Assembly: GCF_036588685.1 (NCBI RefSeq)
Contig: NC_086380.1
Span: 6,138,001 to 6,202,000, forward strand
Length of the DNA stretch: 64,000 nt
Source of the DNA: Mytilus trossulus
Lineage: Eukaryota
Reading direction: 5' to 3'
Shown: positions 17,739 through 48,957 of the stretch, piece after piece
How positions within the stretch are numbered: the stretch's first letter is position 1
How the letters are laid out: every line of letters starts with the position of its first letter
Notes under the pieces: generated by a model
Told to the model about the DNA's origin: nothing
The model's database searches: none
What the model saw: the letters and a program-made list of their open reading frames with translations, nothing else
Position numbers and translations under genes: made by a program

Positions 17739-18004
17739 TTAAACGAATGTAAAACAAATTGTGAATGGTCTTTCTACCTTTCTCCCGTCCTCTAAAAAAA
17801 CTATTAGTAATTCTCTTGGTATTCAGTTTTTTAAATACTAGCCTTTTCAGAACACTGAATCAGACGTCATATAATAAGAACATCACAACTAGAATGTTTG
17901 AAACTCAAATTTAAAGTTTAAATAATTTCAACACTTCATTGTACGTAAATCAAGTTTTGCTACGTCTTTTTCGAGAGAAGGGAGGCAATTCCAATGTTAT
18001 AGAT

Positions 18005-20155: not shown

Positions 20156-20874
20156 ATAGGTGATAATTTATGACTCGCCTGTTTTAACATGTAGATCCGC
20201 TACAAGTTATGTCGACACGAGACATCGGGTTGAATGTTTCAAGTCTGTTCTGTTGCGAATCTATATATATACCACCTAACCAAACGGACGCTCCGCTCTG
20301 ACAAGCGTTTTACTACTGGTCGGAATAATAATAAAGTTGTTCATATTGCGATATCTGAGTTCCCTGATACATAACTGATAATAAGTTCCTACAAGTCCTA
20401 GATGGTATTATTTTCAAATCACTTCTTAAAGTTTATAAATTTGCTTGTAAATATATCAAAACTAATGAACATACAAAGAGCGATTTTTCTAGCTTTTACT
20501 ACTAAAATGTTAACTGCTACATTACAGAACTCAATTCTAAACATTTATATTGCTATTGCATTGTCACTGTAGAAGGTTTTCAGATTTTGATTATAAAATA
20601 GAGAAAAGACTTGTGGGGACGGAGAAATTCAGATTATTATATTTTACTTAGAAAGCAACAATATTTATAGTAATGAAAGAAGTTAAAAAAATATTAATCG
20701 AATCGAAATTCTATATTTGAAAACCGTAAACCGTGGCTAAAACTATCACTTGATATCGACATTTTTGAAATGCAGTTTTAAGTTCAGGGATACCAATCGA
20801 GTTTAATGCCATATTTTTGCATTTGCCCTATAAATTGGAATACGTTTTTCCCCTATAAGTTCTTTGCTATTTAT

Positions 20875-21330
20875 AAATATAACGTCAATATTCAGGTTTT
20901 TGAAACACTAAAAATAGATCACTATTTACATGATAGGAAAAGAACTAAGAATTAAAGGACACATATAAAGAATTTAAATCAATATAAAAATGTCCGAAGA
21001 TATATCACATGTAATAAAAGGAATGTGGAATTCCCAGTAACTATTGCTTTTAGGATACCACAAATCTCCAGGGATATGGCAAATGCAGAGTGCGCTACCC
21101 AGTAGCCTTCAATTTGAAAATAGCAGTTTAAAGGTTTATGGTAAGTATGGAATGTTATATATGGTCATAATAAACTATTTTGATTTGGTAAATCTCATAA
21201 ATGTTTTTTTATTTAGAATATAGCTGATTAGTAAATACTTGTATTCTAGTAGATTTAACCAAAAAACAAATATATAAGGTGTTTTTTTTCTATCTATAGA
21301 ATACTGTGGATAATATAAGTTTTACTTTTT
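20875..21330 (+). promoter_or_regulatory. cGLR1 upstream module A (candidate promoter/first exon ending ATG 21138-21140)
   Basis: CTAAAAATAGATCA at 20908, GGAATTCCC at 21027, ATG|GTAAGT; phase 0 matches the acceptor at 23864. Confidence 0.55.
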
Positions 21331-22125
21331 ATACGCCCGTCAAAATTTTGAAAATTTTGAAAATTTTGACGGGACGTATTATGGTATATACAAATGTCCG
21401 GTGTCCGTCCGTCCGTCCGTTTGTCTGTCTGGCGTAAACATGTCGCCCCGTAACATGAGAACGACTTATCTAAATTTCATGAAACTTAATTTAGTTGTTT
21501 CTTATGATGGTCAAATGATCTCTATACTCTTTGGTGAAAATAAGATTCAAACTTTTTGAGTTACGGCACTTTGTAACTAAAACAGGGGTGTGGTTTTTTT
21601 TTTTCACATGTCGCAACGTATCTCAAAAACGATTCTTGGTTATTGCTTTAAACTTTACACACTTCTTTTTTTTTTATCTAAAGATCTGTATACTTTTTGG
21701 TGATGATTCAAAATTTCATTTATGAGTGATTGAGTATTTTGTAAAACGGGGGGAGTTTTTTTTACATGTCGCGTAGTATCTCAAAAACGATTTATGACTA
21801 TTGCTTAAAACTTTACACACTTCTTTTATATATTAATCTTAAGATCTGTATACTTTTTGGTGATGATTCAAAATTTCATTTTTGAGTTATTGAGTATTTT
21901 GTAAAAAAAGGGTGAGGGGGTTTCATAGGTCGTGCCATATCTCAAAAACAATTTATGATTATTGCTTAAAACTTTACACACTTCTTTGTTATTTTAGACT
22001 AAAGATCTGTATATTTTTTGGTGATGATTCAAAGATCTGTATATTTTTTGGTGATGATTCAAAATTTCATTTTTGAGTTATTGAGTATTTTGTAAAAAAG
22101 GGGTAGGGTTTTTTTTACAAGTTTT
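21326..22125. mobile_element. HINE/DINE-1-like non-autonomous element with internal ~159-bp tandem repeats
   Basis: Begins TTTTTATACGCCCGTCAAAA...TTTTGACGGGACGTAT (hairpin), then (CCGT)n microsatellite, then three repeat units at ~21606, 21765 and 21924. Confidence 0.7.
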
Positions 22126-22194
22126 TCACAATTTAAATACTAAAAGCATATCATATTTCAATACATGTGTATCCTATAATGCGGCTTAAATATA

Positions 22195-22590
22195 AATATA
22201 ACGTCAATGTCAGGTTTTTAAAAACACTAAAAATAGATCATTATTTACATGATAGGAAACGTCCTAATAAATAAATCAATATAAAATATCCGAAGATATA
22301 TCACATGTAATATAAGGAAGTGGAATTCCCAGGTAGTTACTGTTGCTTTAAAAGATATAACAAATGTAAAGTGCGTTATACCCAGTTGCTTTTGATGTAG
22401 AATAGCAGGTTTCAAGGTGTATGGTAAGTTTTGATTTTTTTATGTGGTCATAATACATATTTTGTTAGTCTTATTTGTGCCTTTATGTAAATAGTGATTT
22501 AGAAATTAACTGATGAGTAAACTCTTTTATTCTATCGGAACAATTTTTTTTATACCTATAGGATACGGTGGGTAATATAAGTTCATTTTT
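22195..22590 (+). promoter_or_regulatory. cGLR1 upstream module B (diverged duplicate of module A; ATG 22421-22423)
   Basis: CTAAAAATAGATCA at 22227, GGAATTCCC at 22322, ATG|GTAAGT; colinear similarity to 20875-21330. Confidence 0.55.
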
Positions 22591-23863
22591 TTTTTAGATC
22601 AAATAGTTTGCATAATCTACATAATTTTATACTTTCGATTTTGATCATTGCGTCTTAACAGAAATAAATTAATAAAATACAACCAAAGGATCAACATTTA
22701 ATATTTGTAAGATTCATTTTTTTCTTTCCCTTTAACCTCAGTGAGAATAGAAGTTTTCTTGGAAAATTCGAGGAATCAAGTTCACGTATTCAAATTAACA
22801 AATGAACTAGTAATTTTGCCAGAAAGAAAACAGTTTAGCTTTAATATAGATTTAGCTGAAATATTATTATTCTCATTAAATATGTAAGTGTTTCAATCTC
22901 ATTTTGTTTAATTGAAAACTGGAAAGTTAGTTTCGTTTTTATTGCATGCATGGGTTGTTCCCCTTAACCTATTAGATAGTTTCACAAAATGTTAAAAATT
23001 GTCCAACATTTTAATTTTTTTTTGGCAACATTAACATTGGCCGCCATCCAGATTTCAAAAAGTTTTTATATTGATGAATTCTATATCACATTTGGAATCT
23101 TTTGGTTACAAAACATTCTGGATCGTAGGCCAAATTTTTCCTAAAGCTTTCATGTCTGAAAATTGCCCCAAATCATCATAATTTAACAAAATGGACCTAA
23201 TTTGGAGAGTATTATGTACTTTAATTTATGAAAAGAACTAATTTATTGAGCATTGATAATTTTGAAATAGACCCATTTACGAAACAACTTGTGAACTTTT
23301 TGGTGTTTTATGATAAAATTGATATTTCAAGCCATTTTGAGTGAATCTTGTCCTTTGTTGAAAGCATTCAAACCTTTTCTATAACTATGACTTTTGTAAT
23401 GCAGTACACACCTCTATAATAAAGAAAAATGGAATCTTATTTGTCGGGTTACCAAATCACCTTCTTTTAAGATGACATTGTGCTAAGACAATATCTTCAT
23501 AGATTTGTATTGTATTTTGAATAGAATCGTTGCATTTCCATCAAAAACTTTGGTTTTAGGGAACACCATTCGTGCGTTTATGAGCGTCGTCACTCCGTTC
23601 CAAACGTTGTGCGTTGTTTGAAAGAATGATAATGCTATGCAAATAAATTCTTATAATTGATAATCAGAACTATACAGAATCATTAGGGAATTTTGATGTA
23701 GTACTTACGGAACAAATATTATTTCTAGTTAATACTGCATAATGACGATCACAAAGATACTTGATAAAATTTAGAAAAGCAGGGATATAGGCGATCCCCT
23801 CTATCTGATAAAGACGTCACAAATGCTTACAAAATTTACAAACTTTTCCATTTATCTTTTTAG

Positions 23864-25609
23864 AGTAATTTGCTGAGTGCTAATATGGATGTCTCGAAAC
23901 AGCGAGAGTCCTTTTATAAAACGTTAGAGGATCAAAACAAAGATGTTCCGAACGATGTCCGACAACGCCGATACTGCAAATACATTACAAACTTTGCATC
24001 TCATTTCGGTAAGGAAAGATGCATGGTGGTGGGGAGTACTACAGAAGGAACCAGACTGCGGTCAAACATAAATGAGGGAGATTTTGATTACCTGATTATA
24101 TCAGGAATATCCATACCCGTAGACGCTTTGGAACATAGAAAGGACCTACCTTGCTTTGTCCACATAAGAGGTGACAAATTTCAACATTCATTTTCTCACA
24201 ATTTGGTAGACGGGAAATACCTGCCCAGTCGTATTCTAAAAGAGGTCGACAAAGAAGCTTTTAAAATAATGAGAGGTCTATTCCATGTCCTTACGGTACC
24301 ACGTGTTACCAAGGAGAGACAAACTGTTCACGCCGAGTTCAACCGTGAAGCTAAACCTGGTATGTGTACAGAACATTATGCTGGCTTCGAGGTAGTTGGT
24401 GATGATTTAACTCACAGTATGAAATATCGTCTTACCGAACTTCTCAGTATGCTTGCTGAGACGACACATAACGACATATTTAGTTCTACAATAGGACAGA
24501 TCCTTGTAGGGTTAATAGTTGCCTCAGTGGGCGATCCGGAGTGTTCTCACCCGAAAAGAAGAAAACAGGAAACTGAGGCAAATGAAAGACGTACCACTGA
24601 CGATACATCAAACGAAAAAGTATGCCGGGTTAGATTTAACTACAAATCAAGCAAAGATTTTATTGCTGCATTCCCTATTGATGGAAAGCTGCAATGTCTA
24701 GAAGAATGGAAATGTAGAATACTGAATAGCGACAAAGTATTTTGGCCGAGCTCCGAAGCTGTTGATAAAATCTGTCAGTCGGAGGTGTACGTTGTAGCCA
24801 AGCCAGCAATTGTTGACCCATGTACCGGTATTGACTTTTGCCTCGGATTCAACCAAGCTGAAATGATCCTAGCTTCTTGTCTGAGCTCTGATCAAAGATT
24901 GTGTGTCCTGCTTCTAAAATCTCTTCAGAAAGGTTATCTTAAAAAGTACTCTTCAATACTTACAACTTTTCACTGGAAAACAGCCTTTTACCACAAATGC
25001 GAACACATTGATTCAGGTCTCTTTGATCGTCATTCGACTATATTGAATGCCCTTGAAAAAGTGTTGTCCTACATGATAGATTGCTTGGAGAGAAAGTATC
25101 TGAAGCATTATTTCATAGAGAGCAACTTAATAGCCCATATTACTGAGACAGAAACCAATGAAATCAAAGGAAAGATCAAAGAAATTATCGCAGATCCAGA
25201 AGCAGCTCTCCAAGTGTATTTCGATATGAATAAAGAATGCGAAAGCTCAAAACAAGAAGAAGAAATTTCTATGATAGAAATGGAAGAATTGAAGAAATGT
25301 AAATTTGATACTGCAATTAGGATACCAAAAGTATTAACAATGATGTCAGATTTACAAAAAGAAGCCAGTGACGGTTCTTCACTCACAAAAGCTATTTTTG
25401 ATACGTTATTTATGGTAATCGAAGAGGAGACAGATATTCCATTAAAACGATCAGATACCCCACAGAACCCAATGGACCTTTTAAGAAAAGTTATCATTCA
25501 TAAAACAACAAAATTTAACACGCGAGAAGAAGAGAAGGAGGCCCTAGGCAACGTCAGGGCTGCTGGGTTTTCCCTAGTTAGTCAGGCATTTTTTGGTGGG
25601 TTTAAGTGA
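23864..25609 (+). CDS. cGLR: Mab-21/cGAS-like receptor nucleotidyltransferase, copy 1 (main coding exon; first in-exon ATG at 23885 gives 574 aa)
   Basis: VVGS-x14-DFD active-site motif, third Asp in KDFIAAF, EW..R...WP...I...VYVVAKP, FNQAE.IL...Q.LC.LLLK, TFHWKT and CL...LKHYF..SNLI Mab-21 motifs. Splice acceptor ttttag| at 23863 is in frame. Confidence 0.9.
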   Translation, partial: SNLLSANMDVSKQRESFYKTLEDQNKDVPNDVRQRRYCKYITNFASHFGKERCMVVGSTTEGTRLRSNINEGDFDYLIISGISIPVDALEHRKDLPCFVHIRGDKFQHSFSHNLVDGKYLPSRILKEVDKEAFKIMRGLFHVLTVPRVTKERQTVHAEFNREAKPGMCTEHYAGFEVVGDDLTHSMKYRLTELLSMLAETTHNDIFSSTIGQILVGLIVASVGDPECSHPKRRKQETEANERRTTDDTSNEKVCRVRFNYKSSKDFIAAFPIDGKLQCLEEWKCRILNSDKVFWPSSEAVDKICQSEVYVVAKPAIVDPCTGIDFCLGFNQAEMILASCLSSDQRLCVLLLKSLQKGYLKKYSSILTTFHWKTAFYHKCEHIDSGLFDRHSTILNALEKVLSYMIDCLERKYLKHYFIESNLIAHITETETNEIKGKIKEIIADPEAALQVYFDMNKECESSKQEEEISMIEMEELKKCKFDTAIRIPKVLTMMSDLQKEASDGSSLTKAIFDTLFMVIEEETDIPLKRSDTPQNPMDLLRKVIIHKTTKFNTREEEKEALGNVRAAGFSLVSQAFFGGFK

Positions 25610-26915
25610 TGGTTAACGTCCTTAATACTGTCTCTACTGTCGTTTAAGGTCAACTTGACTTTATTATGGTTATATGACTTTAAGATGTGGCATGGCACTC
25701 AAAGTGCTTGCCTATCGTTTACGATTGTAAGTGAATGTAAATAGTTGATTTCTCTTTTTTATTTGTAGTTTATATGTAAATATGTGTAAGATGCATATCC
25801 TGTTATTCTTATTATCTTCATTTTGGACTACGGAATTGAAGCACAGATTCTGAAATAAAAGGACTGTTATTTTGATTTTCTTTTGTGAAGTGCATGTACA
25901 AGTATTATCTTGCAATTTTGAATACTTTATTTTGTATTTCCATTGTACTAACGAACTAAAAGCTATTTGTTGATTTTTTATTTATCTAGTTAAGAATTGA
26001 AAACACTAAGTTGCTCGATTGGTGCCATATGTGGAGCAGGATCTGCTTACACTTCCGGAGCACCTGAGATCACCCCTAGTTTTTGGTGGGGTTCGGGTTG
26101 CTTATTCTTGTAAGTTTTCAATGTTTTTTCATGTGCACTATTGTTTGTCTGTTTGTCTTTTTTATTTTTAGCCATGGCGTTGTCAGTTTATTTTCGATTC
26201 ATGAGTTTGACTGTCCTCTGATATCTTTCGTCCTCGTCTTTAATAATGTTCTATGAAGTCAAAGATAGGGCATTGTTATTCGCATTTGACAATGATAATA
26301 CATCGATCCCTATTAATATTAAAAGTTTTTTTGCTATTGCCCTTGTTGTGAGCTTTTTGTTTATTTTGATAATATTTTTTTTCAATTCCTTTATCAGTAT
26401 ATCATTTATTTCATGGTTTCACATTTTGCGGTATTTTGTTTAAAAATCAGTTCGCCCAACGGGGTTATTTGACAAATATGTACTTTCGGTTTTCCATTTT
26501 CGGTACCTTTTTTTAAATAGTTTTGAAGTAATTGTAGTTACTTGAATCCTTATACTCGTATATATAATTTATTTGTATTCAACTTTTTTTTTATATATTA
26601 TATTTTTTACAAATGTTATTAAATATAAACGTTTTGTGAAATTCCATTGTATGTTTAGTATGTGTCAATTTTACAAATAAATAGTCTGTCTATACCGATG
26701 TTTGATATTTCACCTTTCCCTTTTTTCATCCTTCTCATCTTTAGATATCAACCAATCAACATATTGGCTTTGATGTTTCCGGGACAAATCTGAACAGTTC
26801 AAATGTAGCAACATCTTTAGATCACCACACGACATTCAACATTTCATGTAAGCCACTGTCTTCAAATAATATGTATAAATATATTCAAGTAATATGAGGC
26901 AGGCATAACCTGTGA

Positions 26916-27364
26916 ATGGGGACGAAGTCTGTATGTAATTTTTTTTTACTTCAAGCATGTTAATAAAGGATACGGAAATACCGTAACGTTCCCGATTTTG
27001 GTTCTGTTGTTAGGGATTTAGCTGTGACGTTCTTTAAGTTATGACGTCATATTCAATGTAAACAAAAGAAACCCTTCCATCAGGTAACGGTTTTTTTTCA
27101 AATCAAACAATTATAATATTAAAATTTTATTGAGTTCCAATCTTATATTTTACTGGACTGATCAATATTAAAAAAAAATCAGTCTCATGCAAACAAGACA
27201 GATTCCTGCGCAAATGCGGGAAAACCGGAACAGGAACTAGATCTGAAAAAAAAAGTTATTGATTTTGAGTTCATTAGTACAATGAAAAATTCGGGAAATT
27301 TTCCCTATTTTTTTATTTTTTTATTTATTGATTTTTCTACCGTAATTGGGGACTTCGTCCCCAT
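26916..27364. mobile_element. MITE-like element with 14-bp terminal inverted repeats
   Basis: ATGGGGACGAAGTC (26916-26929) and GACTTCGTCCCCAT (27351-27364) are exact reverse complements. Confidence 0.65.
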
Positions 27365-28334
27365 ATAATTAGCAAAACAGAGATTTTAAGGACTAACAAT
27401 CATCAATTAAATCAGTACGATGTACAATGATCAAGACTTTTAATCTGGCAGAATATGATTTATTTGTTAGTTTTTATTTGCTTGAACCAGTTTGCTGAAA
27501 CTAAATCATGTTTTTGTTACATCACTGTCTCAGGTGAATAAAGGGAAGATTGAGCGCTGACAAACATATGTTTGACCCCACCATTTCTGTTATATGCATG
27601 TCTCAAGTCTGATAACTTTAGTTCAGTTGTTTTCGTTTGTTCATGTCTGTGTCATATTTGATTAAATCATTTCACACGTGTCATGTCGGGGCCTTCCACA
27701 GATGACGATATGAAATGTTGTTTTTTATGAATACAATATGGAAGCCTATGGCTTTTAATCTACTTCATTTGAACAGTTGTGGGTAGCTGTTTCATTGGCA
27801 TACATGCCACATTTCTTACTTTTATATTTTCGTTGGAAAAGTATAGTTTTAATTGAATGGCTATCCTGTTTGACTAACATAGCACAACCAGTTATAATGG
27901 ATGTACAATTACGTGCCCTACAATAAACAACCAAAATAAAGCATTTGCAAAACCATTAATCAAAGTGAAATTCAATATTTTATAGCGCGAACAGCCGGAA
28001 CAAAAATCATCAAGTTTCATATCCTTATTCTCATACGGTTTAAATCCACTGGTACATCGCTACATTGAAGTCCTGATTTACATTTGTGATCTTGATTGAA
28101 ATCCGATTTTTAAAATCATATTAAAGGCGTGACTGGTAAAAAATAATATTTATAAAATTCCTGAACCAATGCATGTATGTATCATTAACTAAGCCTTCTG
28201 TGCACGATTTTGCCACCTAAAGGTAAACAATCAACAAAGGAGCGTCGATATTGAACACGTGTTAAACATGTACAATCATATATTAGTTTATTTCAGTGAC
28301 AGATCTATGCGTATTGCAATCACCGGATTTTTAC

Positions 28335-28632
28335 GGAGTTTTCCTAAGTTACATCATCCATAAAATTTAAACTAAAAATAGATCATTGTGAACGTGACTG
28401 AATACCAATATCAAATCCGTATGTATTTATTTTAAAGTAAACATTTAGAGCATACAACTCAATATGGATTATAAAATACAATATATCAAAACAAATATCC
28501 CACGCAATGATCTCAACTACTGATGTGGATTTTCCAGTAACTTTTGCTATACAGATGTTACACGCCTTGCTCAGCAACTTTCGATTTAACAATTTCATAA
28601 CAATTGTCAAGGTGCGTGTACTATTGGTAAGT
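28335..28632 (+). promoter_or_regulatory. cGLR2 upstream module A (candidate first exon ending TTG|GTAAGT at 28626)
   Basis: CTAAAAATAGATCA at 28372, ATGTGGATTTTCCAGTAAC (kB-like core at 28527) homologous to the cGLR1 modules, ACTTTCGATTT at 28577, donor at 28627. Confidence 0.5.
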
Positions 28633-29433
28633 GCAAAACTTTATATTTGTTCCAAATATTAAATAAGCTTGTATATAAACCTCACCTGTAGATTTTGACC
28701 TTTCTTAATTCAGAAAAGAGCTTATCTTTAAAAATTGTTATTCTATTATTGATGTGAAGGATGACTAAACATAGAATTTTTTATAATTGAGTTTCATTTA
28801 AACACATGTCTTGATTAAAACTACAAATTATTTTTTTTTCTCCTCTAGGATATATGCATATAAATTTGAAAATTATATTAAAAGTTGTAAAATAGAATAT
28901 ATAAAAAATCAGATTAGATAGTTGCATATATTATACGTTTACTTTCGTTTTGAAACAGTGCATCTTTACTTAAAACAAGTATGTTATAGTGACAAGTTGA
29001 ACATAAATTAATATTTTCATATCACTTGACTAAAATGAAATAGACAATCGAAGCGCTGAACTAAAAACATATTAGCGAATTTTATTTTACAAAAGCAAAA
29101 AAGGAGGCCAGTTATATAGAAAGTATTACTGTTTTTGCTACCAAAGCTACTGGCTGAAAGTTTTTTTGTAAGTATGTCAACCTTGTTTTGTGATATTGGT
29201 AACTGGAATATTAACTCGTCTTGTCATTTAGATACGTGTAATGGTGAAATTGGAATCCGATTTGCTGTCATTTGTTTTTGTCCATAAGTTCATTGTGGTT
29301 AAACAGTACAGTATTCGGATTACAGAATACATTTGTAGGTATCGTCTTTTCAGTTGATATTTATATACCTATTATGTGACCTCTACATTTGTACTTGTTA
29401 TTTACTACGTAGTAAGTTATTAGCAGTCAAAGG

Positions 29434-29522
29434 CTAAAAATAGATCATCTCCAATACAGGTGACGTGTAATGTGGTTTTTCCCAATTTAATACTTTTCGC
29501 TTTGTCGAGGAGTATGGTACAA
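29434..29522 (+). promoter_or_regulatory. cGLR2 upstream module B (compact; ATG 29514-29516)
   Basis: CTAAAAATAGATCA at 29434, TGACGT at 29461, GGTTTTTCCC at 29474, CTTTTCGCTTT at ~29493, ATG|GTACAA. Confidence 0.45.
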
Positions 29523-31420
29523 ACATAGATAATCACATCTTTGCATTTTTGAGTCTAAAACGAGGGATAATTTTTTAGAGTGTAATGTTATAAAGGCATC
29601 GTTCATTCTTCTTTTGTGGGTATGTTGTTTTTAATTTCTGTAAATTGTGTGATTCTAGATTACTTCAATCAAATCCTTTTTTTTTTAAAGAAAAATTAAA
29701 ATCAAAATGTAAATACAGCATTGTTTATCAAGACAACATTCTTGTTCCTGTGTATAATTGATTTGTTTACAATTTTATTTTTGATAAACAGAAGAAAAAA
29801 AAACATTCCCGACAACAAATACATTCTTTACGGATTTATCATGTTCATACGAGAAAATTAATGCGCTCATAAACTATATCATCCTTTACACACCTTCCAG
29901 TTCGATTAATACAACCATGTTTTTTTTACGCTAGGATAAACACAGATAAATCTTTTAGATTTATTTAAACAATAAACGATTGACAATTTATAAATCAAGT
30001 AGTAGCATGTCCAACGCAAGTGCACTTTCGTTATAGAGTTGTATTTCCTACATTAATGGACAAAAAGTACCGAGGCCTCAATATGATATTATGTTATTTT
30101 CTGAGGCACACCTCAAACAAAGTCATATGTTATTTATCAGACTATACACAATCAATATGTCAACACAAGTTTTAAAAACACAAAGAGACAAATCGTAAAA
30201 TAAGTATGGATAGAAACCAGAATGTGTGTATTTGCTGCATTTTTCACCAAAAAAAAAACAAAAAAAAAGGATTTGCTATGAAGAGTTCGACAATCTAATA
30301 CTATTCTGGTTAAAATTGAGTGTGTCGATTTGTTTTGGTTTCAAAGAATGCTCGATTTGTCTCCCCTATCCCATCATGAAATAATAGGAAGTTAGTTAAA
30401 AAATAGCGTTATGTCATTTCTAATATTTATATTTTATTGATTGAATGATCGACCATTACTGTTTATAATTGTTGCCACTTTACGCAATACTGACTCAACC
30501 GTGACAGTCACATTTTTGTGTAAAGGGTGTCATACTACGAGGAACACCCCACCGTAAGTATGCATTGAACACAAACTGACAATCAAACTTAACTAAGATC
30601 GGAATTGAATGCACCTGTCCTCAATGGTGTTCAAATAACATCCTCTGTATTGACATGCTAGTTCTCGCTGTCGACGATAAGTGAAATTACAAAATGTCGA
30701 ATTCCAAAGAAAATTCAAAATTGAAAGCACATTATCATGATAATCAAATGGCAAAATCTTAAGCGCAAACACCAATGGAATACATCAGTCATATTCCTGA
30801 CTTGATATATGCATTTCCTTTTACAGAAAAGGATGAATTCAACCTGGTTCTATAGCTAGCTCACCCCTCATTTGTATGACAGTTACATAGAATTCCACTA
30901 TGTTTTCGACAATGTAGCACACTAACACAATAGCGGGATGTATGAATATCATGCCACGCCAAATGGATATTACCAAATTAACAACGAGACACTCATTTAT
31001 TATTTGTGAAGTAAATTAGGAATATTTTTAACGTTGGTGATTTATCGTACTAGTATTCACATTCTCCATTCATTTAGTATTTTAGTTTTACTATCCACTT
31101 TGTAATAAGTGTCTGATATATTGATATTATAAAACTGAGGGCTTTTCTAGACTTACTATAATTTGAAGTTTTCAGTATACCCTTTTAATCACACTAGTCA
31201 AGATTAGAAACAAAGGAGGTATCTGAAAATGATTAGGAAATTGGTTTTAACATTTTAGTATAGATTTAGTCCTGAGGAGACTTACAGCTTTTAACATATG
31301 AACTATTTATTCTCGAAAACCGTATGTTCATCTCTAGAGTGTTTAGCGTCGTTAGGAGACTGTTACATTGAAGGTAATCCTGATATCCTTCAATTGATAT
31401 ATATATATATACATATATAT

Positions 31421-31607
31421 AACTCGTCTAAACATCAACCCAACAATGTTAGATCTGTAAATTTGCTTTCGCAAATTTTTGGTTCTTCCCTCGCCGGGAT
31501 TCGAACCCATGCTACTGTGATATCGTGACACCGAATCGCCTGCACTGCAGCCGTCCCGCTAGACCACACGACCACCTGGGCTCTCAAAAAAAGAGCTTTC
31601 GGTGGCC
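31421..31607 (-). mobile_element. tRNA-derived SINE-like element embedded in a (TA)n microsatellite
   Basis: Minus strand reads GCCCAGGTGGTCGTGTGGTCTAGCG (A-box-like) ... GGGTTCGAATCCCGG (B-box); (TA)n on both sides. Confidence 0.7.
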
Positions 31608-31981
31608 ATATATATATATATATATAAGTCTCAGTCCTTAGTTTATCTACAGTATTCATAATAAGTCAACTCTTGTATTATAATTTCGCTCTTGGCTGTT
31701 GTCTTTTTCCTTTGATTTCAATATTGGCAGGTTTCCTGCCGAGAGTCAGTGGTTCTCTCCGGGCCTTCAGGGGTCTACTACGAATACAAGCTGGTCAACA
31801 TGATGGAGCCACGAGTGCTGAAAGTAGTGTCATCTCCAACAATAAAACAATCATTTGGACGAAATCAAATACTTTGTGACTATGTCTTAAAAGAACCTTC
31901 ATCATGATTCTACAAAAATAAAGTTACGATCTATTTCCTTATCCTTGTAATGGTTTTTTTTTCAGAAGATATCCCGTTAAT

Positions 31982-33838
31982 ATGTTAAAGAGAAATATGC
32001 AGAGTGCCTATGTATATCTCCAGAGAAAGCTACAGTACTTTTACAAAACGTTAGAAGAACACTGCAAACAAGTGCCAAACGATGCAAGACAGCTCCGATA
32101 CTGCAGATACATTACTAAATTTGCCTCTCATTTCGGGAAAGAGTGGTGTATGGTGGTGGGAAGCACGGTCGAAGGAACCAGACTGCGGTCAAACATAAAT
32201 GAAGGAGACTTCGATTATCTAATCATTTCAGGAATATCAATACCCGTAGATGCTTTGGAACACAGAGATGATCTACCTTGCTTTGTTCATGTCAGAGGTG
32301 ACAAAATTCAACATTCATTTTCTCACAGTTTGGTAGACGGGAAATACCTGAACAGTCGTATTCTAAAGGAAGTTGACGGTGAAGCCTTTAAAATTATGAG
32401 GGGTCTGTTCCAGGTCTTTACAATGCCATTTGATTCTTCTTCTCATGATGTTGACTTAAATCGGGAGGCTAAACCTGGCATGTGTAAGGAACACTACGTT
32501 GGCTTCCAGTTGGTTGATAAAGATGCCGATAATTTATACATGAGACAACCGGAAACAGACATGAAGGCTACGAATAATTATTTTCAATCGGTAATGGCCT
32601 CAAGTGATTTATCTCCCAGTATGAAATCTCTTCTAACCAATATACTTGGTATTCTTGCTGAAACATATCCAAATGACGATTCTAGTACTGCGATTGGTCA
32701 AACATTTGGTGGGTTGATCGAAGCAGCCACCTCTAATTCTGCAATCGCCAAATCGACATCTGCTCAACCGAAAAGAAGCAAACAGAGTATAAGGAAAAAC
32801 GACAAACATTACATGGAAGATTCATCTGGCAAAAAAGTATTCCGAGTTAAATTCAACTACAAGTCAAGCAAAGATTTTATTGCTGCATTTCCTCTTGAGG
32901 GTAAACTGGAATGTCTTGAAGAATGGAGAGTTCGGATACTGACCAGCAACAACATATTGTGGCCAAGCCCAGAAACAGTCGAACGGATATGTCAGTCGGA
33001 GGTGTACGTTGTAGCTAAGCCGGCAATTGTAAACCCTTCTGCTGATATCGATTTTTGTCTAGGCTTCAATCAGGCGGAACTTATCTTAGCCTCTAGTCTT
33101 AGTTCTGACCAAAAACTATGTGTTCTACTTTTAAAAGCCCTCCAAAAAGGTTACCTTAAACGTTATTCGTCAGTTCTTACCACTTTTCACTGGAAAACTG
33201 CATTTTACTACCAATGTGGACAAATCGATCCTGCTCTCTTTGACCGCCATTCAACAATATTATTAGCCCTTGAAAGTGTGTTGTCCTACATGATAGAGTG
33301 CTTGGAGAAAAGGTATCTCAAGCACTATTTCCTAGAGAGCAATTTAATAGCTCATATTACTGAGAAAGAAGCCAATGAAATCCGACAGAATATTAAAGAA
33401 ATTATTGAAGATCCAGAAGCGACTCTCCAAGTGTATTTCGATATGAATAAAGAATGTGAAAGGTCAAAACAGGAAGAAGAAATATCTTTAAAAGAAATGG
33501 AAGAAATAAGGAAACGAAGAAATGATCCTTCAAATAAAAAACAAGCTGACAATATAATTAGCATGATGACAGATTTACAGAAAGTGGAAACCAGCAAAGG
33601 TTCTAAACTCACACAAGCTATTGTGGATACGTTATATATGGTTATTGAGGAGGAAACAGATCTTCCATTTATTAGACCTAATACCCCACAGGAGCACTAT
33701 AGCACGGACGATCTCTTGGCACATGGCTCTAGATATTTAACAACAAACTTTCGCTCACAGAAAGAGAAGAAAAAGGCAGCAGAAGAATTAACGGCAAAGG
33801 CTATTGCTACAGTCCTTTCTAAATTTAGTTCTAAGTGA
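31982..33838 (+). CDS. cGLR: Mab-21/cGAS-like receptor nucleotidyltransferase, copy 2 (618 aa; alternative start 31997)
   Basis: Uninterrupted ORF with G60-S61, D76, D78 and D298, plus the same Mab-21 C-terminal motifs; clearly paralogous to copy 1. Confidence 0.92.
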   Translation: MLKRNMQSAYVYLQRKLQYFYKTLEEHCKQVPNDARQLRYCRYITKFASHFGKEWCMVVGSTVEGTRLRSNINEGDFDYLIISGISIPVDALEHRDDLPCFVHVRGDKIQHSFSHSLVDGKYLNSRILKEVDGEAFKIMRGLFQVFTMPFDSSSHDVDLNREAKPGMCKEHYVGFQLVDKDADNLYMRQPETDMKATNNYFQSVMASSDLSPSMKSLLTNILGILAETYPNDDSSTAIGQTFGGLIEAATSNSAIAKSTSAQPKRSKQSIRKNDKHYMEDSSGKKVFRVKFNYKSSKDFIAAFPLEGKLECLEEWRVRILTSNNILWPSPETVERICQSEVYVVAKPAIVNPSADIDFCLGFNQAELILASSLSSDQKLCVLLLKALQKGYLKRYSSVLTTFHWKTAFYYQCGQIDPALFDRHSTILLALESVLSYMIECLEKRYLKHYFLESNLIAHITEKEANEIRQNIKEIIEDPEATLQVYFDMNKECERSKQEEEISLKEMEEIRKRRNDPSNKKQADNIISMMTDLQKVETSKGSKLTQAIVDTLYMVIEEETDLPFIRPNTPQEHYSTDDLLAHGSRYLTTNFRSQKEKKKAAEELTAKAIATVLSKFSSK

Positions 33839-34830
33839 CTGTGATCTTTGGTTAGTATGTTTCAGCTATCAAATATACTGTTTCGTTATAAAAACTAATT
33901 GAGGATTAACATTCAAGGAGGAAGCAATATGTAGTTGTTCGACTCATCCATTTTCAAAGTTTTAATTAATTAGTCAACTAACCTTTATAATGTTGACTCT
34001 GTGATGTATCGCAACATTACAAGCATACATTTCCCCTTGTTTTCAGATTTTGATAAACGAGTGTATGATTGTGAAGTGAGTGTATAAATCTTATCTAGTG
34101 AATGTAGTGATCTTAACAAATAAGCAAAGACACCTAATTAAATGAGTGCTGAAAGTTTGTTAAGTGAGTGCACACCGTGTTAATTTTTTCTTATTGGGTG
34201 TAGGGACATTGTTAGGTGAGTGGACGTATCTTATTAAGAGAATGTAGGGATTTTGTTCATTGACTATAAGGATTTTGTAAAAGTGTGTGCACTCTGCGTA
34301 TGAATCTTGTCAAATGAGTGATAGAAATTTTGTTAATTAATTTTATCGATCTTGCTGTAAATTATTTTACAATTATGTATGAGATTTTGAAAGAGAATTT
34401 AAAGGGTACATTTATTACATTTTATACTGCAATCAGCTATTTTACTGTACAGATAAAGCTATACGTATAAACGTTAGCTTTATACGTCAATGACCCCAAT
34501 TGACCTATAAGCCCCGCCTCCTTATTGTATTTCATCAACAACATCACGTCACGACCATGACAACGTAAAGTAACAATGGTCAAACTTTTTTGAATTTAAA
34601 CTTTTATGTCTTCAAATTGGTTATTTATATATCATGTTTATCAAATGCTATTAATTAAGTTCATTTTCCCTTTCTAATTCCTTAATACGCCAATGTCTTA
34701 CCACCTGGACTACGCTCATAGGGAAATACCCCAAAATGGTACCCCAAGAGGGAAATTCCAAACACTTTTTTTAACAATTTTTGTTACATGTTTTTTTCAT
34801 TTTTCATTTTTTTTTTCGATTTCAGTATAA

Positions 34831-34978
34831 AGACAATATACGTATAGTGTCTTGAAATATGAAATTTATTTGTATTCGGCACGAAACGGGAAAATGCTCG
34901 GTAGAACCTCGCATTTTCCCGTTTCTAAGCCTCATACAAATAAATTTCATATTTCAAGACACTATACGTATATTGTCT
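34831..34978. repeat. 148-bp imperfect palindrome/hairpin
   Basis: AGACAATATACGTATAGTGTCTTGAAATATGAAATTTATTTGTAT... pairs with its exact reverse complement ending at 34978. Confidence 0.93.
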
Positions 34979-35344
34979 AAATAATAGAACCACTGGGTTA
35001 CGCTTAATTTAATTAATCATCTAATACATAGGGCATTAAACGTTAGGCATTCATTTAATATATACCATTGATATTACTTATATATTGATATTATACTTTT
35101 TTATTGTAGCTTTTCTATGTTAATTTATTAAAATATTTCAGTTTATTTTATATTGATATCTTATATGAATTATTTCAAATAACCGTATCTTTTTATCATA
35201 TCAAGCTTTTTATATGTTAAACAACATCTGAAGGATTGTTTTTCGATATGTTGTTTTGTTCGGTTGGCCTGAAGTGGCAATTTCGAAGGAAAATGGTTTG
35301 TGGTGAAATACTGTTTTTGTGGATTTCTTTTCTTTTAAGAACCA

Positions 35345-35900
35345 AATACATAAACTGTTCTACAAGCTTAAAAGAGGGGGGGGGGGGGGGAAATAAAATG
35401 TTTATTTATTCGTTTCACAGCCTTTTTAATTTGTAATTGACAACTTCAAAAGGGAAAAAATGACCATCATACGATAAAAAATAGATAAAAAGGTTCGACA
35501 GAGACTGTTTTACAAACTTAAGCACAGTTAAATTTCAGCTACTCGTTTCACAGTAGCCCTTTCAATTTGTTATTGACAACTTCAAGAGAAGAAATATAAA
35601 TTACATAGCAAACGATACAATATAATAGAAAGAATAGAAAGAGAGTATCCTTGAAACTTAAGCTCATTTAAATTTTCAGCTTTTCATTTCAAAGTAGCCC
35701 TTTTAATTTTTATTGACAAATAATAAGTTACATAGCAAACGATACAGTAGAATAGAAAGAATAGAAAGAGATTGTTCTACAAACTTAAGCTCATTTAAAT
35801 TTCAGATTTTTATTTCACAGCAGCCTTTTTAATTTGTTATTGGCAACTTCAAAAGTGAACAACATTGTAAATCAAATGATAGAAAGGACAGAAATGATAA
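35345..35900. repeat. Degenerate ~130-140-bp tandem repeat, ~4 copies
   Basis: TTTCACAG..GCC.TTT.AATTT...TTGACAAC recurs at ~35412, 35545, 35686 and 35812. Confidence 0.75.
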
Positions 35901-36029
35901 AAATGATTATCGGTAATTCGTATATTTTCCCTTTGATCTTACTGCCTAATATTTTCGAGTATCGACGTACTGGCTGTGTCACTGAAAATATTAAGCAATA
36001 CAGTGTGTGACGTCATAATTATTATAAAC

Positions 36030-36157
36030 AGAATAATAGGTATTTTCGTTTTTGATAGTGACTATATCATGTTGAATATCTTATATCGGCCTAACGGGAT
36101 CGTCTAGATATTCCACATGATATAGTCAGTATCAAAAACGAAACTACCTATTATTCT
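36030..36157. repeat. 128-bp imperfect palindrome/hairpin
   Basis: AGAATAATAGGTA..TTCGTTTTTGATA.TGACTATATCATGT pairs with ACATGATATAGTCA.TATCAAAAACGAA..TACCTATTATTCT. Confidence 0.9.
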
Positions 36158-38684
36158 ATATTTGTGTTCCCTTTCTTGTTACTTCAAGTTAGCAAGAGCA
36201 TCATTGATGTTATCTGCGGCAATATATCAACTCATCATAAATTATTATCATATAATAAGATGAAGTAAACCCAAAGAGTTATTCGTCCTTTCTTGCAATT
36301 AAACAAAAAAATACTGAATTATTTCATGTCACGTGGTAAGGTGTTACCCAATATAATTGGTTGTAGCATCAACTGCTGGGTTCATCGTAGATTGTTCTGC
36401 ATTGTTTATGCGTTCATGTGGTGATAAAGAAATAACAGTTCAGCGGAATACAGTGACTTGATTATTTTGTTTAAGACATTGTTAAAGTTTGTGGTAGTTT
36501 TGTCAGTCATCTTCTCAATTAACAATATAAAGGTTAAAGCTCATTTTTTAATCATAGTGATAAGGAAAAGATCAATGTATAACTTTATAATAATATCCGT
36601 CTTCCAAGGACTCGTTTCGGACTGGGTCGGATTCAGATAGTTATTGTAAATCTCTAGTGATAGGACCCGTTAATGTCTTTTAAACAGCTGTATAAACTAC
36701 TGTAGCAATTATTTAGAGCTGAAAGATCACACACTCAGTCAATTTTAAAATACCAAACATACATCATATGCAATACAATGCAAAATATATATGTGAATGG
36801 GGTTGGGTGGAAATTTTTACTGTTTAGAAATGCAAATAATGAAGGGGTACACCTACTCTTTTGGTGGTTTGGCTATTCATTATACAAGGACCAACCCACC
36901 ATGCTTTCTTAAAATATTCCGTACCAAGTGAGGAAACTGGCAGTTGTTACCAAATACTAGTAGTTAATTATTTTTCCATGTATATTGGCGTTTCTTTTTG
37001 TAAAATGCAGTGGCCCTTCACCTGTTCTTATGTTCTTATGTTTTTCTGTAAAGTAAGTCTGTTCCCCCGGTTTTAGTTTGTAGCCCGGATTTGTTTTCTC
37101 TTAATCGATTTATGACTTTTGAACACCTGTATATCACTGTTGTCTTTTTTTACATAATAAAGTACGATTTAATAGATTTTACAATTTTGAAGATATTACA
37201 GAAAGGCTATATATATGTTCAATGATGTGTTTTTAGTTTCACTCAATAGTTTAGAGCTATTTCATGTATATTGGTGCATAGAGAGCGAAACATTTAAAAC
37301 CGGTATTTTATCTATTCAAGTCGCTATAGGGATGAACATACATGAACTGATTTAAAAAAACAAAAACACATGTTATACAGGCACGTCATCTAGGAATTTG
37401 TTATGAACAGATAATTTCACATTCTACATCTCTGTAGATCGGTTCTCCTTGACGGACAAAGATAATAAAAAAAAAAAGGACAACATAAAATATCTTGAAA
37501 TTTTCCTATCACTGACATGGCAGTTTCGTAAAACGTACGATTGCAAATTCACGAAAGTACAAATTTGGATCAGTAATTTTGTTGTTGTTGAACAGTTTAT
37601 TATTTTGCTATTAAAGATGCCAGCTAAAACTTTATTGTTTTCATTAATTATAATGGTTTACATTTTCGTTTTGGGATATTGGAAACTTGAATGTTTAGTT
37701 TCGTTTTCAGTACATACTAGAGTTGTTTATCTTTGTCTACCAGATGGTTAGATTTGTAAAAGGCATTCAAACCATTTTAATTATTTTGCATTTAAAGTCA
37801 AATGAAACCTCAAATAAAAAAAAAAATGCATCCGTTTTTTATAACTAAATGAATAGTTTTCATTATACAACTTATATACATATACTGTTTTCTGGGGAAA
37901 ATTCTTTAATTTGTCCACATTTAGAAGAAGTTTATTTATTTTTAATTGCTTGCTTCCAGGAAGCAATTCGCCGACATTTTTTCCGTATGCTTAGTGACCT
38001 GAGCGTGACCCTCCCCGTACAAATTCGGTAATTGCAATACGCATGGATCTGTCATTTAAATAAACAATTATCTGATTATACATGTTAGACACGTGCTCAA
38101 TACCCATGCTTTTTGTTATGTGTTTACTATAAGGTGATAATCGGACAACTTCGGCATCAAAACACGGCATTTAATGAGCAGCCATATTTGTTAAATCATA
38201 ACAGACAGAGATATAAAAAATTGACGATTATACGATATATTTGCGTCAAAAATGAAAAAATCCTGCACAGAACAATAAATTTATGATATATACATGCATT
38301 GGTTCAAGAATTGGATAAACATAATTGTTCACCACTCACTCGTTCCTTATGACTTTAACGTTATAATAATGCAGTACACACGAATTTAATAAAGGGTGCC
38401 TAATTTACATGGCCTATAGTAAACATCTTTCTGCAATCTGCTTCCAAATTCCCAGTTAAGTGGTTCTTCTAGGTGAATATATTTGGTGCGTTACCTCCAT
38501 ATTTACATATGTTCATAATTTAAAAATTTGATACGATCTTTGGATTACACATAAAATATGAATGGACCTGTAATTACGAGTTTTGTTCCCTTTATGTAAC
38601 CCCTTCCCATTTTCTAAAACCAGATACAAATATGTCACATATAACTCTGTTTCAACATAATAAGTTTTTTTAAAAGTTCGAATA

Positions 38685-38791
38685 CTAAAAATCGATCGTC
38701 ATTTATACAGATTTAATAAATTTATAATGCAGCTTTGCTAACAACTTTCGCTTTGAGTTTAATTTGAAGTCTGTCAAAAATTATGGTAAGA
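38685..38791 (+). promoter_or_regulatory. cGLR3 upstream module A (ATG 38783-38785)
   Basis: CTAAAAATCGATC at 38685, IRF-E-like ACTTTCGCTTT at 38744, ATG|GTAAGA; in frame with the acceptor at 47158. Confidence 0.45.
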
Positions 38792-39579
38792 ACACAGAAA
38801 ATGTCATTTATCCTTTTATAGCTATATGATTATAGAAAAAGAATGAACATTTTGGAAATGCTTTTTTTTTCTAATATGTATCGACAAAGCAGATCGTATG
38901 CGGACAAATGCTCAAGGAGTAAATTGATTTAACACAGTGATGACGGCTGTAACCATATTTTGACTATTTTACCGATTATGTCTGTTTTTTTTCACGCATC
39001 GTTATAAAAATAACGGATTTGATGCGACTGTTATAAAAGTGGTTTAGCGCTATAAAATCAGGTTCAATCCACCATTTTCTACATTTGAAAATGTCTGTAC
39101 CTAATCAGAAATATGACAGTTGTTATCCATTCGTTTGATGTGTTTTATCCTTTTAATTTGCCATTCGATTAGGGACTATCCGTTTTTCAATTTTCCTCGG
39201 AGTTCAGTTTGTTTTGTGATTTCACTTTTAAATCTATATTTCTAGAGAAAAAAACCTGTCAAGATGGAAAAGTGAAAAAAAAAAAAAAAATAATTAAAGA
39301 TAAGGAGATTGAAATTTAAATTGCAAATGGAAATTTCTGTTTCGTCAATGTAATAAAAACAAAAAAGATATTTGAATAAAAAAAGTAAAATCACAAAAAA
39401 CTGAACCCAAATGAAAATTCAAAAAGTAAATTCCCTAATCAAAAGCTCAAAAACATCAAACGAATGTTTATCAACTGTCGTATTCCTGACTTGGTACAGT
39501 CATTTCCCATGTAGACATTTGTGGATGAAACCTGGTTTTGCACGTGCACAGAAAATTAGGTTTGTTAACTATTAGTTTG

Positions 39580-39775
39580 TCTTCTACCTCAGGCATAGAT
39601 TACCTTAGCTGCATTTGGCAAAACTTTTAGGAATTTTGGTCCTCAATGCTCTACAACTTCGTACATTATTTGGCCTGTTTTTACATTTTTGCGGGATTCG
39701 AGCGTCACTGATGAGTCTTTTGTAGACGAAACGCGCGTCTGGCATATATACTAAATTTAGTCCTGGTATCTATGA
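39580..39775 (-). repeat. Solo copy of the 364-bp satellite monomer family (others at ~2476-2695, 59355-59410, 63055-63140)
   Basis: Reverse complement of ATAGATACCAGGACTAAATTTAGTATA..GCCAGACGCG..TTTCGTCTACAAAAGACTCATCAGTGACGCTCGAATCC. Confidence 0.85.
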
Positions 39776-40542
39776 GGAATTATTTGTTTTGTCTAAACAT
39801 TTTTTTTTCTTCCTGGAAGTCCCCTCACAAATTACGAATTGATAAAATCCACTGTAAGGGTGAACATAGATGACTTTATCTAATACACGTGAGTTAAATC
39901 TTTACACCAGTACGAATTAATCATGTTCATGAAAGACATGTGTTAGTTTTCTTCCAGCGCTAGTATCGACAAAGGCCCATCTTAAACTTGCAATAAGCTG
40001 AAATTTCTGAGTTTTCCGTGTTGAAGATTTTACTGTGACTTATAGATATAAAAACAGTAATAAAATTGCTTTTCCTTTCGTTTTTGATTAGTGCATGTTC
40101 TGTATTATGTCATGGTAAGATAGCTAATGTCCTTTAGTGTAAATATTGTATTACAGACATTATTTTAGATTAAAGACCTTATCATGACAGGTATTAAAAT
40201 AAAGTCAATGTTTACTTTTTTTTGTACAAATACAGTTATCAATACTTTTTACAAATGATAAACCTATCCTGAAGTTTTGAGTATTGCGGAAGTGAGACAC
40301 GTCCTTGTATGTATAAGTTGTGTACAAATAATTAGCATTAACTTACATACTATTTGTCACTTTTACCGAAGATATACTATGAATTGTATAACTTCATATA
40401 GTGATTGTTCATGGTCAGTCTTTGACTGCCAGTCATTGTCACTGGACCTTAATCTCAAATTATCGAGCTCATTTGCCATCAGATACATAAAGGTCACATA
40501 TATCGTTGTTATAACGTATTACATTTTTGAAAATTTTGAATA

Positions 40543-40660
40543 CTAAAAATCTCGATAAAAATAGATCATGATGTAATACGTACATTTGTTTTGCAGCTTT
40601 CAAAATAACTTTCACTTTCCCTTTCAAATCAATACAACGGCTGTCAAAATAATGGTAGGT
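40543..40660 (+). promoter_or_regulatory. cGLR3 upstream module B (ATG 40652-40654)
   Basis: TAAAAATAGATCA at ~40556, ISRE-like ACTTTCACTTTCC at 40608, CTGTCAAAA..ATG|GTAGGT; colinear with 38685-38860. Confidence 0.45.
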
Positions 40661-42926: not shown

Positions 42927-43124
42927 ATGATATAGAAAGTGAGAGGTTTAACTAGCTATAAATCCAGAATTAATCAAGGATTATGACCGTTGTTTTTCAT
43001 TCGTTTGAAATCTCTGAGCTTTTGATTTTGCCAATTTTTGTTTTCAGTTTTCCTGTTTTTGTTGTTGTAATTTTTACTAATTTCAAACCGTTGTTTACAC
43101 TTCTTGTTTCTTTTCATACATAAC

Positions 43125-46100: not shown

Positions 46101-46498
46101 AATACGTTAATACAAACCATACATTACGATAATAAAGTTACAATCAACCATACATAACGATAATACAGTTAATATTAACCATACATAACGATAATACGTT
46201 AATACCAACCATACATTACGATAATACAGTTAATATCAATCATACATAACGATAAGACGGCTAATATCGACAACACATAACGATAAGATGGTTAATATCG
46301 ACCATACATAACTATAATACAGTTTATATCAACCATACATAACGATAAGACGGTTAATATCAACCATACATAATGATAATACAGTTAGCATCAACCATAC
46401 ATAATGATAAGACGGTTAATATCAACCATACATAACGATAAGACGGTTAATATCAACCATACATAACGATAAGACGGTTAATATCGACCATACATAAC
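43125..46498. repeat. 31-bp minisatellite (AATATCAACCATAMATAACGATAATACAGTT)n, ~109 copies
   Basis: Direct reading of the sequence; period 31 (e.g. 43261 to 43292). Confidence 0.98.
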
Positions 46499-47157: not shown

Positions 47158-48957
47158 AGTAACATGCAGAATGAAAACTGGTCTGTCCAGAATTTCTACA
47201 AAATGTTAGAAGACCAAAGCAAACAGGTACCGAATGATGCACGGCAAAGCAGGTACTGCAAATATATTACAAAATTTGCCTCTCATTTTGGCAAAGAGTG
47301 GTGTATGGTAGTGGGGAGCATGGTAGAAAAAACGAGGCTGCGGTCAAACATGAACGAAGGCGACTATACCCGTAGAGGCTTTAGAACATTGAGAGGATCT
47401 ACCTTGTTTTGTTCACGTTAGAGGTGACAAATTTAAACATTCATTTACCCACAGTTTGGTAGACGGACAATACATCCACAGTCGTATTCTAAAAGAAATC
47501 GATAGAGAGGTTTTTAAAATAATGGGCGGTCTGTTGCAGGTATTTACAATGCCACTTGTTTCTAAGGGGTTACTTTATAATCAGGTCGGCATCAACCGTG
47601 ACGCTAAACCTGGCATGTGCGAAGAACATTATGTTGGCTTCCAGATGATTGGGGGAGCTAATGAAGAAATTTATATAAGAAAACAGGATACAGACATCAC
47701 AGCCACGAAAAAATATTTCCAATCGGTAATGGATTCAAGTGATATATCACCAAGTATGAAATCTCTTCTTAACAACCTTCTAACCGTACTTGCTGAAATA
47801 AAACCACACAACAAGTCTGGTACTGCCATGTATCAAACCTTTGCTGGTTTAATAGAGGCAGTCAATTCTGATAATGCAGTACACAAAGTAGCCAAGCCGA
47901 CGTCTTTTCATCCAAAGGGCACAGAGGCAAACGACAGACAATACATTGAGGATTCATCTGGCAAAAATGAAATCCGGATTAAATTCAATTACAAATCCAG
48001 CAAAGAATTCATCCCTGCATTTCCTCTTGAGGGAAAACTGAAATGTCTGGAAGAATGGCGAGTTCGTATACTTACCAGCGACAAAGTTCTGTGGCCGGCC
48101 GCGGAAGCTGTGGAAAAAATCTGTCAGTCGGAGGTGTACATTGTAGCTAAGCCGGCAATTGTCAACCCTTCTGCCGACATCGATTTTTGTCTCGGCTTCA
48201 ATCAAGCGGAAATTATCCTAGCTCTGAACAAAGATTATGCCTCCTACTCCTTAAATCCCTCCAGAAAGGATACCTTAAACATTATTTTTCAGTACTTACC
48301 ACGTTTCACTGGAAAACTGCCTTTTACCATCAGTGTGGACATATCGATCCTGCTCTCTTTGATCGTCATTCTACAATATTATTAGCCCTTGTAAGTGTTT
48401 TATCCTACATGATCGAGTGCTTAGACAAAAGATATCTCAAGCACTATTTCCTAGAGAGCAATCTAATAGCTCATATAACTGAGACAGAAGCCAATGAAAT
48501 CAAAGGGAAGATCAAAGAAATTATTGCAACCCCAGAAGAAGCTCTCCGAGTGTATTTCGATATCAATAAAGAATGTAAAAACTCAAAACAAGAAGAAGAG
48601 ATATCTTTGAAAGAAATAGAAGAAATGAAGACACGGATGAATAATCCGTTCAATGCAAAACAAACCGACACAATAATTAGCTTGATGTCCGATTTGCAGA
48701 AAGCAACCAGTAGCGACGATTCTAAACTCTCACAAGCTATTGTGGATACGTTATATATGGTTATTGAGGAGGAAACAGATATCCCGTTTGTTAGACCAGA
48801 CACCCAACAGCAGCAGTGTAGCCTCAAGGATCTCTTGGAAAAGGCTACTATGTATTCCACAACAAGCTTTTCTTCAAAAAATGAGAAGAAAAAGGCACTA
48901 AAAGACTTACAGGCAAGGGCGTTTTCCACGGTACTTTCTTCTATTCGTTTTAAGTGA
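47158..48957 (+). pseudogene. cGLR: cGLR copy 3, disrupted
   Basis: Aligns along its full length with copies 1 and 2. It carries a 29-nt deletion at ~47365 that removes FDYLIISGIS, an in-frame TGA at 47390-47392 (AGA in the paralogues) and a 13-nt deletion at ~48221. The ORF track shows it split into three pieces. Confidence 0.88.

Follow-up and report, generated by a model that had tools for sequence, protein, structure and literature searches.

Bivalves hold very large families of cGAS-like receptors (cGLRs), and the regulation of individual paralogues is little known. We analysed a window of 64,000 nucleotides from the mussel Mytilus trossulus (G000:C8:6138001-6202000, within a genome of 1.3 Gb), in which each of three tandem cGLR-type genes is preceded by two short segments that look like a promoter with a first exon. 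Clustered alternative first exons that feed one downstream exon are familiar from the protocadherin and UGT1A genes. Other features of the locus have precedents too. Start-codon introns, which lie in phase 0 between codons 1 and 2, are over-represented across eukaryotes (Nielsen and Wernersson 2006, PMC1626468). cGAS has been identified as an interferon-stimulated gene (PMC10855445), and oyster CgcGAS is up 13-fold after poly(I:C) (PMC8218723). In the fly, MEF2 acts on antimicrobial peptide promoters via a compound MEF2-TATA box (Clark et al. 2013, PMC3807682).

We conclude that the six segments are probably duplicated alternative promoter/first-exon modules of a cluster of cGLR-fold genes, predicted to be switched by NF-kB and IRF. 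The anatomy, the division into two lineages, the locus specificity and one splice (29619^31966) were observed directly. In each of the three genes, all on the forward strand, the coding sequence forms a single long exon that encodes a Mab-21_C domain. The closest matches of the window proteins are Mytilus proteins, and one paralogue elsewhere in the genome shows full identity with an M. trossulus-labelled protein. Modules of type K carry a MEF2-type site (a 14-mer), a TATA box and a kB site; modules of type I carry the MEF2-type site and an IRF-E, without a TATA box. The modules and coding exons are as follows.

20908..21140, forward strand: module 1a, type K; 14-mer (MEF2-type) at 20908, TATAAAA at 20983, kB-like site GGAATTCCC at 21027, ATG at 21138-21140, donor GTAAGT
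22227..22423, forward strand: module 1b, type K; 14-mer, TATAAAA at 22280, kB-like site at 22322, ATG at 22421-22423, donor GTAAGT
23864..25609, forward strand: coding exon of gene 1; intact cGLR-fold protein of 582 aa including the upstream Met
28372..28626, forward strand: module 2a, type K; 14-mer, TATAAAA at 28470, kB-like site GGATTTTCC at 28527, IRF-like site at 28577, TTG in place of ATG, donor GTAAGT
29434..29619, forward strand: module 2b, type I; 14-mer, kB-like site at 29474, IRF-E-like site at 29492, ATG at 29514 with weak donor GTACAA, used donor 29619|GTATGT
31966..33838, forward strand: coding exon of gene 2; acceptor 31966, start MLKRNMQ at 31982; older acceptor 31991 used in some animals
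38685..38785, forward strand: module 3a, type I; 14-mer with two mismatches, IRF-E-like site at 38744, ATG at 38783-38785, donor GTAAGA
40555..40654, forward strand: module 3b, type I; 14-mer with one mismatch, IRF-E ACTTTCACTTTCC at 40608, ATG at 40652-40654, donor GTAGGT
47158..48957, forward strand: coding exon of gene 3; broken in this assembly

In its placement of the segments the original prediction was accurate. The 14-mer is exact at 20908, 22227, 28372 and 29434, and has one mismatch at 40555 and two at 38685; the kB-like sites (21027, 22322, 28527, 29474), the IRF-E-like sites (28577, 29492, 38744, 40608), the five ATG|GT junctions (21140, 22423, 29516, 38785, 40654), the TTG|GT at 28626 and the phase-0 frames from acceptors 23864, 31991 and 47158 are all present as it had described them. 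All six 14-mers are on the same strand as the genes and upstream of them. Four exact copies were counted in the window, compared to 0.00 expected; allowing up to two mismatches, there were eight compared to 1.6 expected, the two besides the six in the modules being on the reverse strand. A kB or IRF string is present between motif and donor in 6/6 modules, compared to 2.7 to 8.7% of non-coding windows of equal length, an enrichment that is suggestive only, the patterns being consensus strings picked after the sites were seen. We take GGAATTCCC and ACTTTCACTTTCC to be near-perfect kB and IRF-E sites. Half sites of CRE type (cAMP response element; ACGTCA or TGACGT) adjoin the 14-mer in 1a, 1b and 2b, at 20882, 22201 and 29461.

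The original prediction had described a single module repeated six times. Pairwise alignments scored against 200 shuffles divide the six into two lineages of three. Within lineages, z ranged from 7.6 to 53 for the K group (1a, 1b, 2a) and from 5.0 to 18.8 for the I group (2b, 3a, 3b), and none of the 200 shuffles reached the score of any pair. For the nine between-lineage pairs, z was 0.1 to 2.0 over the whole segment, which is no significant similarity, and did not exceed 2.8 over the exon part. Gene 1 thus has K+K, gene 2 K+I and gene 3 I+I, with 69% identity between 1a and 1b and 68% between 3a and 3b. The predicted split (kB sites in gene 1, both kinds in gene 2, IRF sites in gene 3) is correct as a description; since it follows from K/I descent, it counts as about two observations, not six. 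A probable history starts from an ancestor that carried one module of each type; after its duplication, gene 1 would have lost its I module and duplicated K, and gene 3 the reverse.

All three K modules retain the TATAAAA, and the kB site lies 42 to 57 nt downstream of it. With transcription taken to start about 30 nt past the TATA box, the kB sites fall in the 5' leader; they and most IRF sites are probably inside the transcribed leader, not upstream of it. The modules might be real first exons that are constitutive or tissue-specific, driven by MEF2 and TATA; the kB/IRF strings would in that case be parts of the leader under some unrelated constraint, and immune feedback would be absent. That the MEF2-type site, and not kB or IRF, is the best-conserved element would agree with this, as would the location in the leader and the presence of transcripts in runs of several studies, whose treatments are not on record. 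Yet two of the sites are near-perfect, as stated above, and within each lineage the module's own site is kept at the homologous position. In the fly, moreover, MEF2 works at immune promoters in concert with NF-kB sites (PMC3807682). We regard such non-immune control as very unlikely.

The original prediction also called for a check that the module is no common repeat, since a transposon or satellite fragment could give the same picture. The exact 14-mer indeed occurs 334 times genome-wide, compared to 26 times for its reversed control. Yet among the first 30 of these 334 hits, 19 belong to one repeat family (a 500-bp tandem unit, in L019), three each to two others and five are singletons, and none of the 30 clusters with a module of the window: the sampled copies lie mostly in an unrelated repeat. 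Four of the six modules (1b, 2a, 2b, 3a) were searched against the genome and gave no match outside the cluster, hence no dispersed copies, within a limited reach, as the 3a query also missed 3b. We consider an origin as a repeat fragment practically negligible, and the claim of locus-specific 5' modules duplicated with their genes held for the four modules searched. We discarded the notion of the 14-mer as a common element of core promoters, its genome-wide excess being repeat-driven. A composite pattern of motif plus IRF site had three genome matches, namely 2b and two unrelated ones; the pattern as written excluded 3a and 3b.

Six related cGLR-like genes, of which three or more appear broken, form another tandem cluster at G000:C1:22774000-22838000 (L035-L041), which is without the module: in the 80 kb read there (22.76-22.84 Mb), three motif matches with two mismatches were found, and no BLAST match above 32 nt. 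The window itself holds two tandem arrays, at 17996-20155 and 43115-46498, one with 5.9 copies of a 364-bp unit just upstream of module 1a, the other with 109 copies of a 31-bp unit in the first intron of gene 3.

By fold, the encoded proteins may fairly be called cGLRs. The active-site motif h[QT]GS x8-20 [DE]h[DE]h was found, and G58, S59, D74 and D76 are invariant in 56/56 aligned proteins, the GS being preceded by V, A or T and mostly not by Q/T. Two residues are candidates for the third acid, for which the published spacing is 50-90 residues: D117, acidic at a frequency of 0.93 and 41 residues downstream of the DxD, and D266, kept in 53/56 proteins and placed on a predicted strand about 190 residues past the DxD, beyond a low-confidence insertion. 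Pfam reports Mab-21_C with an E value of 2.4e-10, and the best phmmer match is cGLR1 (8gjy, E 1.8e-4), over the C-terminal part only. A structure model with a mean confidence (pLDDT, predicted local distance difference test) of 79.8 was aligned by Foldseek over about 470 columns to MB21D2 and cGAS, with E values of 1e-12 to 1e-10 (MB21D2 1.8e-12, cGAS 1.3e-11). Homology thus covers the nucleotidyltransferase core and the C-terminal helical bundle, with a structural match. Upstream of the cluster, at about 7400-11300 on the reverse strand, lie exons of an acid sphingomyelinase-like phosphodiesterase (Pfam ASMase_C). Enzymes of the SMPDL3A type degrade cGAMP in mammals; the adjoining position may be a chance neighbourhood.

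Splicing was examined through contigs of sequencing runs that are presumed to be RNA, though none is recorded as such, and these contigs stop matching the genome exactly at acceptors 23864, 31966 and 31991. For genes 1 and 3, the start codon closes the first exon, which is spliced in phase 0 to the single long coding exon, as had been predicted for all three genes. In gene 1 the intron directly after the ATG is seen in the gene's own annotation: the recorded protein (P0010) begins MSNLL, and its orthologues in M. edulis and M. galloprovincialis begin MSNML. The same orthologue protein is common to at least three accessions in each of the two species, and isoforms with shorter starts exist, which is consistent with varied 5' ends. 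Contigs of runs X1, X3 and X8 start matching at 23862-23863, with 23, 145 and 128 extra letters ahead of that point. Since the depth of X3 in the bin over 1a (20800-21183) amounts to 145 nt at the depth of its contig, we infer that splice 21140^23864 is used, although it is not among the joints displayed (15 of 30 and 15 of 26). The predicted alternative, 22423^23864, has coverage only: X11 has a depth of 4.81 in the bin over 1b (22336-22719), with no joint among the rows listed. The 128 letters of X8 found no placement on 1a, 1b, 2a or 2b at 85% identity.

Gene 2 departs from the prediction, which had derived an M-RNMQ start from donor 29516 (GTACAA). The sole contig covering the module, from X11, matches 29506-29618 without mismatch and then joins 31965 (GT..AG, cut +1), which is direct evidence for joint 29619^31966. 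It reads through the ATG at 29514, so that a four-codon upstream open reading frame lies in the leader. The X3 contig also uses acceptor 31966, and the recorded protein (P0001) starts MLKRNMQ, within exon 2. The first exon is thus non-coding in both the matching contig and the annotation, 2a carries TTG, and the start-codon-only exon fails for this gene; no M-RNMQ start was present among the 107 proteins returned. If an exon-terminal ATG were joined to 31966, the frame would run for just four more codons before a stop, which could explain both the TTG in 2a and the abandoned donor of 2b: the acceptor would have moved 25 nt upstream, and both modules would have dropped the ATG-only design. The older acceptor survives elsewhere, since the X8 contig uses 31991 and orthologue proteins, which start MEDSENQ-RNMQ or MINSNGQDTE-SNMQ, join at RNMQ or SNMQ. 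The 112 nt that X8 carries upstream of 31991 likewise found no placement on any of these four modules at 85% identity, and gene 2 alleles in other animals may differ. The 2a exon had no cover in runs X1, X3, X8, X11 and X15, which is not evidence of silence. A joint from 32293 back to 24167 was rejected as a splice, being gene 2 sequence cross-mapped to gene 1.

Upstream of gene 2 no convincing MEDSENQ or MINSNGQDTE exon was found; the best look-alike is at 22759, in the gene 1 intron, where the sequence following a good acceptor (22741) translates LENSRNQ and resembles the MEDSENQ start of M. edulis. The introns that follow modules 1b and 2a can be aligned over about 600 nt and have a second GTAAGT in common (22884, 29168), and 22742-22883 and about 29040-29167 are a possible cassette exon; X15 has slight depth in the bins of both. 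Downstream of gene 2, the segment 34664-34814 holds two kB-like sites (34721, 34750) and IRF-like strings without the 14-mer, and is possibly a separate enhancer.

For gene 3 the splicing evidence is orthologue annotation. The orthologues begin MSNMQ in M. edulis and M. californianus, and the N-terminus of M. galloprovincialis VDI03513.1 (P0096) equals the translated 3a exon joined at the ATG to SNMQ (score 62, next best 13). The prediction of three working sensors fails here: the gene has a 29-nt deletion after about 47365 that removes the region of the second catalytic Asp (D76 lost) and is closely followed by a TGA, and there is a second deletion, of 13 nt, near 48222; both deletions are frameshifting. 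Records of M. edulis and M. galloprovincialis (P0007, P0097) are intact, and the breaks are either a null allele or an assembly error. Modules 3a and 3b therefore drive no enzyme in this assembly.

We infer that both modules of each gene are used. Another explanation is that each gene has one working promoter module, the second being a decaying by-product of local tandem duplication whose motifs persist by descent. The similarity of 1a to 1b and of 3a to 3b does reach into upstream and intron sequence (z 4.9 to 10.8), as a block duplication would give, splice evidence bears on one module per gene only (1a from depth, 2b from a direct joint, 3a from annotation, with coverage alone for 1b), and 2a has lost its ATG. 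At about 69% identity, however, the 14-mer, a kB or IRF site and a strong donor survive in both copies, as does the TATA box in the K copies; X11 has depth over 1b, and several transcripts are annotated per orthologue. We therefore think a single working module unlikely.

Several points weigh against duplicated, immune-switched alternative promoters. Among the joints displayed, no gene has both modules spliced. Little depends on the exon-end ATG, since an in-frame Met follows at codon 4 in genes 2 and 3 and at codon 9 in gene 1. The six modules amount to only about two independent observations, with patterns picked post hoc and kB sites 3' of the TATA box, within the predicted leader. The MEDSENQ- and MINSNGQDTE- starts of gene 2 orthologues derive from exons that are not ATG-only, and the two unplaced X8 pieces imply that other or more diverged first exons exist. 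Finally, the runs are only presumed RNA, and contigs carry neither expression level nor treatment.

If duplicated switchable modules are nevertheless the correct reading, Rel would act on K modules, IRF on I modules and MEF2, as co-activator, on both. The result would be ordinary positive feedback on the level of the sensors, through STING; by precedent, the feed-forward loop of the original prediction is plausible. One might go further and suppose that mussel cGLR clusters diversify their regulation by shuffling NF-kB-type and IRF-type cassettes, both built on a MEF2 site, which would assign paralogues to antibacterial and antiviral arms and extend the immune role of fly MEF2 to molluscan sensors. 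Because a cassette ends in ATG and in phase 0, its duplication, exchange or even splicing to an adjacent paralogue would leave the enzyme unchanged. We consider such shuffling a speculative and rather improbable extension.

The K+K, K+I and I+I paralogues make a small testable case, in which different responses to Rel and IRF stimuli are predicted, and the cluster makes MEF2 a candidate co-regulator of molluscan immunity. Should the sites prove inert, the locus would be an ordinary tandem duplication with 5' exons. A literature search, whose coverage excluded subscription journals, found no paper on Mytilus cGLR promoters; the available sections of PMC8713801, PMC10316007, PMC5869526 and 10.1101/2023.05.08.539652 hold no cGLR promoter analysis, and those of PMC10855445 and PMC8218723 no promoter dissection for cGAS.

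Compared with the protocadherin and UGT1A clusters, the mussel genes have only two first exons each, which add no protein variety, and no cross-gene splice was seen among the joints displayed. Their likeness to start-codon introns is that the first exon of genes 1 and 3 gives the ATG only and is spliced in phase 0; known cases are enriched in short, lysine-rich, ribosomal proteins, whereas here they occur in immune-type enzymes of 580-630 aa with two alternative exons per gene (PMC1626468). With the published cGLRs (Li et al., 10.1101/2023.02.22.529553) the proteins share the GS-x14-DFD, a candidate for the conserved third acid, the Mab-21 helical domain, the cGAS/MB21D2 fold and a bivalve tandem expansion; they differ in the distance of D266 from the DxD and in a V, instead of Q/T, before the GS. 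As with induced cGAS, a sensor-type gene has IRF/kB-type sites and is predicted to be raised by immune signalling, but oyster CgcGAS has zinc fingers, and in the oyster study STING and TBK1 were not downstream of it (PMC8218723). Like the fly MEF2 promoters, the modules have a MEF2 consensus near NF-kB sites, and the mussel CTAAAAATAG conforms to the core of KCTAWWWWTAGM, the consensus quoted there. In the fly the element is a compound TATA (CTATAWAAGM), whereas the mussel site is without a TATA core and lies, in K modules, 53-98 nt upstream of a separate TATA (PMC3807682). All elements have precedents, in start-codon introns, alternative promoters and the induced cGAS of oyster; what is modestly new is the conservation of the MEF2-type site and the mixture of K and I modules among paralogues.

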